A stretch of 64,000 nucleotides of DNA, from positions 37,634,001 to 37,698,000 of the forward strand of contig NW_026889803.1 in NCBI RefSeq assembly GCF_033153115.1, written 5' to 3'. How positions within the stretch are numbered: position 1 is the first letter of the stretch; every line of letters starts with the position of its first letter. Source of the stretch: Saccostrea echinata (Eukaryota). The notes under the pieces were generated by a model. The model did no database searches and was not told where the DNA came from. It saw nothing but the letters and a program-made list of their open reading frames with translations. Positions 5,202 to 6,914 of this stretch are shown piece by piece. A program made the position numbers and the translations under genes.

Positions 5202-5652
5202 GTAGTTATAAGGAGCTACCTGAGATAGGCGACAGGGTGATCACCTAGTAGGCAGCCATAGGCTGTTGAGGTAGGCAACAATGGAAGTTGCTGAGATTGT
5301 TAATTTTGATTGTCTGCATCACTTTTTATGATACGTATCAAAATAAAACCATTAAAGTCATCATTGAGCAATTTTTGTTGTTATTTATTACCGTGGTCGG
5401 TGGTGTCCAATTTTCCAACATCCTTTGCTTTTCCATTTACATCCAACAGTCACTGCCCTTGTTTTTATTCCCTTTATGTTGATCATGTTCCTGGAGAGAT
5501 CCTTTGTGTTTGTTACCTAAATAAATATTGCCATAAGTAATCATAACAGAGACACCTGCCATTAAAAACTTACTTATCAAGTACCATACCTGAAAATGAT
5601 TGCCAATGTTATACCTATCCTGAGAATTAGAGTCAAATTTTGTTCTTATAGA

Positions 5653-6914
5653 ATGCCATTCAAATGTCATCTTGAGGTTGATGGGCTGCCGTGCAATAAG
5701 ATATTTGAAAAAGTCGGCGGAAGTTGAAAGAGCACCTCTCCCCAGCACCACACAGAGCATTGAAAGTTATTTGCCCTTTTTGCTTAGATAAGAAGGTTAT
5801 CTTTAACCGTCCAGCGGACCTCAAGGTACACGTGACGAAGCACCACAAGGATGCTGCAGCTGGAGGAGTTGTCTGAAAACAATGCTTTCTGGATCTCTTT
5901 CCACCCCACCCATTATCGTGGCATAGTTGAGCCCACAGACAAGAAGACCAGGACTTCTACCAGGCTGAGGGCCGTCCTCCTTGAGGCAACTATAAAGACT
6001 TCCTTTCGACCCAGGAAGACCCGACAGGATTGGTTGGAGGGATGGGAGGCACCAGCCACCAACTTTCAACAGACAACGCCTGTGCAATTTGCTGAGTATA
6101 GCCCCACCTTTACAAGCCTCTACTCCGTTGTGTCAATTTCCTTGGTACCTGGAGAAATCTTTGCTTTCTTGGAGGGTGAAAGATGCCCATTCCATGTACT
6201 CCTTGACGACACCATTTTGTTTGATGCTAGATGCACAGCGACCCTGACAAGGAAGATGGCATTACAGAAACCTCCTCGCTGCCTCCATTAGATGAGTTTG
6301 AGTTGCAGGACGGATGGCACTCTTGGGCAAAGCACTTGGCCTTTGCACTGGGAGTTGACGTGAAGTATCTTAAGGGTGTGTCCTCCTACAACAAGCCTAA
6401 GGTTCCCAGTTCTCCAGCCTCCAGTCAAGGATCCTTGGCAGAGAGAGCAAGAAACTTGCTAGCAAGGGGTTGTATGCCTATACTGCCACCTGAGAAGGAA
6501 GAAACCGTAATATTGAAAAGTGGAAATGTAAGTATTACATGGCCACCCAAGGAATTTTCTTCAATGACTCCTGATAGGAAGTTGCTGGAACTAGAGTTTA
6601 CCGCACTAACATTAAAGTGGAGTAAACCAAATGTGGAGACATTTTGGATAGGGCTACACTCTTGGATGAATTCAACTTTTTAGCACTGCCTGGTACGCCG
6701 AATCTGTCACCAAAGAAAATAAATAAACCTCAAGTCAAAAGTAGGGTCAACCTGTATCAGTCCGTACGAGACATCGCCAATGGAACTTCCCCTAACTTCT
6801 CAAAATGAAGCGCTATTGGAATTCTTGGAGTATGGAGGTTGGAAGAGACAACATCTTTGGGATGAACTCATTGCCATCATTGATGCTGCTGGCGTAACCT
6901 TAAGACTGAGTTAA
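5653..6914 (+). pseudogene. Extra env-position ORF of the Gypsy element: ~420 aa, two N-terminal C2H2 zinc fingers plus an unknown C-terminal region (about 5 frameshifts)
   Basis: Splice acceptor TTTTGTTCTTATAG immediately before ATG 5653. Fingers: MPFKCHLEVDGLPCNKIFEK/RKLKEHLSPAPH and KVICPFCLDKKVIFNRPADLKVHVTKHH. It continues through track ORFs 5851-6291 and 6231-6683, then LLDEFNFLALPGT...GVTLRLS* just before the PPT. Confidence 0.75.

Follow-up and report, generated by a model that had tools for sequence, protein, structure and literature searches.

A zinc-finger gene conserved between pol and the 3′ LTR in a lineage of bivalve Gypsy retrotransposons

The window, the whole 64,000-nucleotide stretch of Saccostrea echinata DNA analysed here, begins inside a single copy of an LTR retrotransposon that occupies positions 1–8085, with all features on the forward strand. 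Only the 3′ part of the 5′ LTR is present (1–509), the start of the LTR lying approximately 804 nt before the window. Starting from this end, the U3 region carries a composite motif, CGTAC-N9-ATTGG, as a candidate regulatory site (1–17, with its leading two bases just outside), and a second copy of the motif 30 nt upstream. A TATA box (50–57) and a CAGAT initiator-like element 29 nt downstream mark a predicted transcription start (50–84), followed at 153–161 by a predicted splice donor, TAG/GTGAGA (GT at 156–157), the top sense-strand donor in the LTR. The primer-binding site (515–532) is complementary to tRNA-Leu(CAA) and identical to the first 18 nt of a tRNA-Leu(CAA) probe (PMC7997516). Behind it come a decayed gag (698–1639), a pol with protease, RNase H and integrase (1723–4912), a third frame, hereafter ORF3, a polypurine tract (6964–6975) and the 3′ LTR (6976–8081), which carries CCGTAC-N9-ATTGG at 7530–7549 and is directly followed by a 4-bp target duplication, GTAT. 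The hallmarks of Ty3/Gypsy (Metaviridae) elements are present, namely TG...CA LTRs, primer-binding site, polypurine tract and target duplication.

This copy is dead, with its reverse transcriptase (RT) deleted, its gag, pol and ORF3 frameshifted, and its LTRs only 87–95% identical. The RT deletion, near positions 2492–2507, corresponds to residues 266–546 of a relative's pol. A dispersed repeat of about 300 nt occurs in the window at 4504–4808, 8477–8772, 37018–37350 and 46231–46560, and the first of these copies is an insertion in the integrase tail. On the reverse strand, at 61372–63113, lies a second decayed ORF3 remnant of the same type as the first, hereafter type A, which belongs to the L021/L025 family and has the LTR motif at 60456.

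A preliminary description of this DNA had proposed that a frameshifted ORF of ~420 codons lies between the pol stop (4912) and the polypurine tract, directly behind a splice acceptor. The ORF is there, broken, from an ATG at 5653 to a stop at 6914; just before it, the acceptor-like sequence TTTTGTTCTTATAG provides a predicted acceptor with a pyrimidine tract (5630–5651, AG at 5650–5651), and the two C2H2 motifs and every quoted peptide can be found, spread over several frames. The length of ~420 codons did not stand as a natural size, as ORF3 in intact relatives measures 468–625 amino acids counted from the ATG. The window ORF3 comprises a helical N-domain with two C2H2 fingers (about 5653–6050), an α/β middle domain (about 6100–6400), a linker deletion (near 6414) and a conserved C-terminal domain (6411–6911). 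The window lacks the low-complexity linker that forms residues 272–399 of an intact relative; at this site its two closest sister copies hold about 300 additional bases. Introns as an explanation for the gaps between the window ORF3 and its sister copies were rejected, because intact relatives have a single open frame with the linker at that place. Against intact natural relatives, the window pieces give alignments with E values of 1e-43 to 1e-21, which is beyond chance.

With one ORF3 piece as the query, 36 of 49 candidates in the same genome matched, many of them in open frames of 470–639 codons. On the question, raised in the preliminary description, of whether homologs lie between an integrase and an LTR, they do: pol homology is found upstream on the same strand at 21 of the 22 ORF3 loci fetched, at a distance of 483–739 nt from ORF3 in 20. 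Intact relatives encode gag, then pol in the order protease, RT, RNase H and integrase, then ORF3. LTR pairs flank 10 of the 11 elements examined with flanks, 7 of the pairs being 99.6–100% identical, with 4-bp duplications that read ATAT, GTAT, CTAC and ATAC across copies. Besides the window's own there are at least five type A families, with ORF3 identities of 30–53%, and type A families are low in copy number. At G000:C30:16289902-16315811, three type A elements follow one another at intervals of 9.26 kb, and the frame is open over 639 codons in all three. Outside this genome, both contigs retrieved keep the gag–pol–ORF3 order, with pol identities of 70% and 52%. A profile search returned 630 clusters at E up to 0.001 and 154 at 1e-30; Mytilus names appear on 2 of 10 clusters looked up, one of the two with many partial copies. 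A scan of 34 long members found 2 that are gene models in which the protein is joined to Gypsy protease or integrase domains. The linkage to pol, the outside contigs and the wide family of clusters together make the zinc-finger ORF3 a trait of the lineage rather than a one-off capture.

Eight unsaturated comparisons of type A ORF3, those of window pieces with their sisters included, give dN/dS values of 0.06–0.33, the ratio by which the preliminary description had proposed to gauge constraint between families, and indicate purifying selection; the range omits saturated pairs, which yield no ratio, and the window piece 6659–6805, which is unaligned with the open frame of its sister. Synonymous sites have reached saturation in comparisons between families (pS about 0.7–0.85), with a pN of 0.33 and 53% identity for the closest pair. 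ORF3 diverges much faster than pol, at 53% identity versus 80–83%, and faster than RT and integrase, and the type A comparisons show no sign of positive selection. Fixed in the lineage and under selection, the ORF3 gene encodes two fingers and a middle domain, then a linker that varies and a C-terminal domain that is conserved. The intact copies, the position between integrase and LTR, and the purifying selection bear out the earlier proposal that a Gypsy lineage stably encodes a non-env zinc-finger ORF3 of its own.

AlphaFold models of the type A protein comprise an N-terminal region with the two fingers and helices, an α/β middle, a disordered linker and a C-terminal domain. The fingers follow the C2H2 pattern (C-x2..8-C, an aromatic residue, L-x2-H-x3..5-H); Pfam zf-C2H2 is above cutoff in one of six type A proteins and weaker in the others, and the best PDB sequence match is to the fingers of CTCF (E 0.01). 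Pfam and PDB sequence searches matched nothing in ORF3 except the fingers. The whole-protein model (pLDDT 54) gave no Foldseek matches and a top Z of 4.4 in the fold search, and the C-terminal domain modelled alone (pLDDT 87.5) gave no Foldseek matches in PDB or BFVD and a top Z of 4.9 among 48,161 chains. This domain of 170 residues is confidently predicted and without a structural match, which does not in itself prove a new fold. The ESM Atlas was uninformative, residues 1–270 scoring at best 0.90 to an unnamed cluster and the C terminus 0.82.

Hydropathy and motif scans of intact homologs agree with the earlier statement that the protein has no signal peptide, furin site or transmembrane anchor. 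Across 13 intact homologs, the highest 19-residue hydropathy value is 0.87–1.82, indicating no signal peptide or membrane anchor, and the RxK/RR motif is absent in 10 of them; among 69 wider homologs, hydropathy rises above 1.9 in 2. Pfam, PDB and fold searches yielded no match to a described env or accessory family, and no likeness to F-type or gB-type fusion proteins appeared in the Pfam or fold result lists, absence from such lists being weak as an exclusion. Neither the 6 type A proteins searched nor 23 aligned members gave a Pfam BTB match, with the same library that detects BTB_2 in a sister clade (below). The second finger has R or K at −1 in 89% and D or E at +3 in 98% of the 69 representatives, out of 147, in which it was detected, and NLS-like basic clusters occur in 57 of 69 representatives by a loose pattern. 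By the C2H2 recognition code, a second finger with R(−1)/D(+3) would read NCG; C2H2 pairs are able to bind RNA or protein too.

As for expression, an AG stands 1–9 nt 5′ of the ORF3 ATG in 15 of 18 copies and at both outside loci; the remaining three copies are two decayed ones and an LTR-free gene described below. The LTRs of four of six families have a common promoter layout, with a TATA box, CAGAT 28–29 nt on and the best sense donor 42–94 nt further; the top-ranked LTR donor is absent in two of the six. Scored with a donor weight matrix, the donors are within chance by score alone, antisense strands reaching up to 7.7–9.8 bits, and the argument for splicing rests on the fixed position of the donor, not on its score. 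From these conserved signals we infer that the ORF3 mRNA would be spliced from the LTR donor to the acceptor before the ATG. No such junction was found in contigs of X1–X4 (locus L008) or of X1, X2, X4 and X5 (locus L018), in which internal cover is patchy or absent and decides nothing, and none of the runs behind these contigs is on record as RNA. One RNA-type contig reads unspliced across the acceptor.

The tRNA-Leu primer site occurs 120 times in the genome, and 60 sites without a type A match, among the matches listed, were fetched. Among the elements at these sites with RT before integrase, 28 of 31 carry another zinc-finger ORF3, which is of type B in 12 and of type C in 16. Gmr1-like elements, with integrase before RT, share the primer site and carry none of the three ORF3 types (0 of 9; loci L052, L054, L059, L060, L063, L066, L068, L089 and L092). 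Each type forms one clade on RT, integrase and pol trees, type A with 100% support on the pol tree; the trees are built solely from elements fetched in this analysis, and those of RT and integrase keep 46 and 48 of 81 stretches, namely those with a long single match to RT or integrase. Type B proteins (L064, L069, L070 and relatives) have two fingers, an acidic or Ser-rich middle and an RS/R-rich tail, and their acceptor abuts the ATG. Type C proteins (L067, L086, L098, L104 and relatives) have two fingers followed by a linker and, at the C terminus, a BTB domain of KCTD type, detected as Pfam BTB_2 in all four tested (E 1e-15 to 1e-19). One short element, L087, with LTRs 99% identical, contains a type C ORF3 only and no pol. 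Homology among types A, B and C is not detectable beyond generic fingers, and the plan of two fingers, a linker and a C-terminal module is common to all; the three types represent either deep divergence or repeated filling of one spliced slot. In type C no ATG of the frame itself precedes the first finger, and the frame begins in phase 0 behind a CAG in 11 of 16 loci; an in-phase ATG lies just 5′ of the LTR donor in 13 of 16, so that a short ATG exon in the LTR is predicted. This start is an independent hint that LTR-to-ORF3 splicing may occur, with type C donors that are weak at 3.6–6.9 bits, scored without a chance control.

The motif CGTAC-N9-ATTGG, which was identified post hoc, is found in the LTRs of five of the six type A families, upstream of the TATA box and with unrelated spacers. 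Its ATTGG half is a lower-strand CCAAT box at a fixed distance from CGTAC, 6 matches having a spacing of 9 versus 2 at all other spacings from 5 to 14. The motif is absent in the remaining family and in the stretch 3′ of ORF3 at the outside locus L107. Of 60 loci fetched for other clades, a single one has it and proves to be a type A LTR. Genome-wide, it has 488 matches versus 147 for a control, and 13 of 17 sampled motif loci are repeats that do not match type A LTRs. At L112, L113, L120, L121, L122 and L124, CCGTAC-N9-ATTGG stands in sequence unrelated to type A LTRs, often as TGATTGG. The motif may be a host composite CCAAT element, and its geometry resembles that of ERSE, where NF-Y works with a partner. 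Since the motif was found post hoc and is present in other repeats, a host factor may be its reader. By the C2H2 code, the second finger would fit CCG, and the first finger would not fit TAC.

At L024:2009-3754, on the reverse strand, lies an intact, single-copy, single-frame ORF3 homolog without finger 1; gag, pol and an LTR pair are all absent within 37 kb. Its full-length relatives, at 66–70% identity, fall in clusters that hold K1QHT3 of Magallana gigas and XP_048733676.2 of Ostrea edulis, one cluster having 514 members. These two proteins, and the Mytilus entries named 'C2H2-type domain-containing', belong to the same protein family as ORF3 and are annotated as unnamed host proteins with no Gypsy link given. 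The clade of host genes evolves slowly, has a long stem and joins one element family with modest support (81/95), at a place where long branches meet. L024 and its oyster orthologs are probably a domesticated ORF3, which we consider likelier than capture from the host. The preliminary description had named three outcomes that would speak against it, namely homologs that are host genes unlinked to LTR elements, a lack of intact copies or selection, and a match to a described env or accessory family; none of the three was found, with this LTR-free homolog shared among oysters as the qualification.

Several known systems resemble ORF3 in part. Foamy virus Tas and Bet and HTLV Tax and Rex are 3′ accessory regulators of complex retroviruses. 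Similar to ORF3, which is predicted to regulate its own LTR or RNA, they are products of a spliced 3′ gene, but the viruses are vertebrate Retroviridae that keep env, and no sequence relation to ORF3 was found. Nearer by, the bdelloid rotifer elements Vesta, Juno and TelKA are Ty3/Gypsy (Metaviridae) elements with a non-env ORF3 (PMC5408684). They share with type A elements an additional ORF in the slot behind pol and before the 3′ LTR, a variety of ORF3 types across lineages and the lack of a transmembrane anchor; the rotifer proteins are enzymes (GDSL esterase, DEDDy exonuclease) on recent branches with no clear departure from neutrality, whereas the type A protein has C2H2 fingers and unmatched domains, is clade-wide and is under purifying selection. 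A precedent from a Gypsy-type element for a nuclear accessory protein made by splicing is CERV of the Caenorhabditis elegans element Cer1 (PMC10309623). It has 517 residues, folds into three domains with flexible linkers, carries a Cys finger and is required for the export of genomic RNA. Both proteins are element-encoded, of about 500 residues, with three folded domains, linkers and an NLS, and CERV is made from a spliced RNA. As opposed to ORF3, which lies behind pol and has tandem C2H2 fingers, CERV has exons in common with gag, a Cys loop and a G-protein-like domain, and no similarity between the two appeared.

Errantivirus env, in the passages searched of PMC13524379, is like ORF3 in position and in the spliced expression predicted here, but ORF3 has no signal peptide or transmembrane anchor, and the searches matched it to no fusion-protein fold; the words 'zinc' and 'ORF3' do not occur in those passages. 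Gmr1-like Gypsy elements, with integrase before RT (PMC6238403), have the same tRNA-Leu primer site here and are the outgroup on the RT tree, and differ from type A elements, in which RT precedes integrase. A zinc-finger ORF3 is not described in the passages searched of PMC13524379, PMC12440569, PMC6238403, PMC8556966 and PMC2774666, nor is the family described elsewhere in the literature searched, which does not extend to Repbase, GyDB, subscription journals or supplements. The earlier statement that no such system had been described can therefore be kept, within these sources, for the type A zinc-finger family and has to be given up for non-env ORF3s in general, which were known already (PMC5408684, PMC10309623).

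The reading that we favour, tentatively and as something close to an even call, is that ORF3 acts as a spliced nuclear two-finger C2H2 regulator of the element's own LTR, in place of env. Transcription would start from the 5′ LTR, and the donor 42–94 nt on would be joined to the acceptor before the ORF3 ATG, as the conserved signals suggest; this splice would take out the primer-binding site, gag and pol. The protein would enter the nucleus by means of its basic clusters, and its fingers are predicted to read a conserved CG-containing site, for which CCGTAC, 9 nt from the CCAAT box and just 5′ of the TATA box, is the candidate. The bound protein would switch the LTR on or hold it open, and the C-terminal domain might, as a guess, bring in host machinery, a part that the BTB domain would play in the sister clade. 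A counterpoint to this reading is that the host-borne homolog lacks the first finger.

The spliced product could instead bind the unspliced genomic RNA and allow its exit from the nucleus, as Rev and CERV do, which we regard as unlikely. The early donor and the post-pol acceptor would make the gag–pol RNA an intron-retaining transcript, and type B ORF3s have RS/R-rich tails, but R(−1)/D(+3), conserved here within a tandem pair of C2H2 fingers, is by the recognition code a DNA-reading pattern. CERV, which is nuclear and required for genomic RNA export, is a precedent (PMC10309623), yet the searches showed no likeness of ORF3 to it in sequence or fold, and CERV has its exons in common with gag. 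A counter-defence adaptor similar to Vif or Bet, with fingers that bind a host silencing or restriction protein and a C-terminal domain that brings a degradation or chromatin complex, seems to us quite unlikely: the much greater divergence of ORF3 than of pol would suit it, as would the BTB domain at the end of the sister-clade protein, a fold that serves as a Cullin-3 adaptor, whereas there is no sign of positive selection, the residues by which the fingers make contact stay conserved and do not turn over, and type A proteins end in a domain other than BTB.

Were ORF3 a self-limiting repressor that binds the LTR and dampens it to control copy number, the low copy number of the families and a copy retained by the host would be expected, the latter as a factor useful against the element, and BTB-zinc-finger proteins are mostly repressors. 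The ORF is nevertheless intact in recently active families, and the candidate site is coupled with a CCAAT box, an activating context, which leaves this explanation improbable. Very improbable, in our view, is a role in integration targeting or in the particle, with ORF3 holding the integration complex at selected DNA; target duplications are similar across copies, but such a short preference is usual for integrase alone, and known targeting domains are integrase fusions. Finally, ORF3 could be a captured host gene carried as passive cargo, in line with the host-borne oyster homolog and with a tree that leaves the order of host gene and element unsettled. Purifying selection within the elements, frames kept intact across synonymously saturated families and two sister clades that fill the same slot largely refute passive carriage, to which we give hardly any credence; the gene may nonetheless have originated by capture from the host.

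It is typical of complex vertebrate retroviruses to encode their own transcription regulators, and outside these few LTR-retrotransposon accessory proteins have a known role. It is conceivable, although we hold it doubtful as a whole, that a large group of invertebrate Gypsy elements consists of 'complex retrotransposons', in which each clade splices from the LTR its own sequence-specific zinc-finger regulator with an exchangeable effector, be it an unmatched fold, a BTB domain or an RS-rich tail. The window's clade would read CCGTAC beside NF-Y and activate its LTR, and oysters would have domesticated the protein as a host regulator, perhaps one directed at these very elements. In bivalve annotations, a set of 'uncharacterised C2H2 proteins' is explained as element genes, and the C-terminal domain is offered as a confidently predicted one without a structural match. 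Together, a clade-wide zinc-finger gene, a candidate LTR site, effector swaps and a host copy provide a directly testable system for how retrotransposons regulate or safeguard their own expression.
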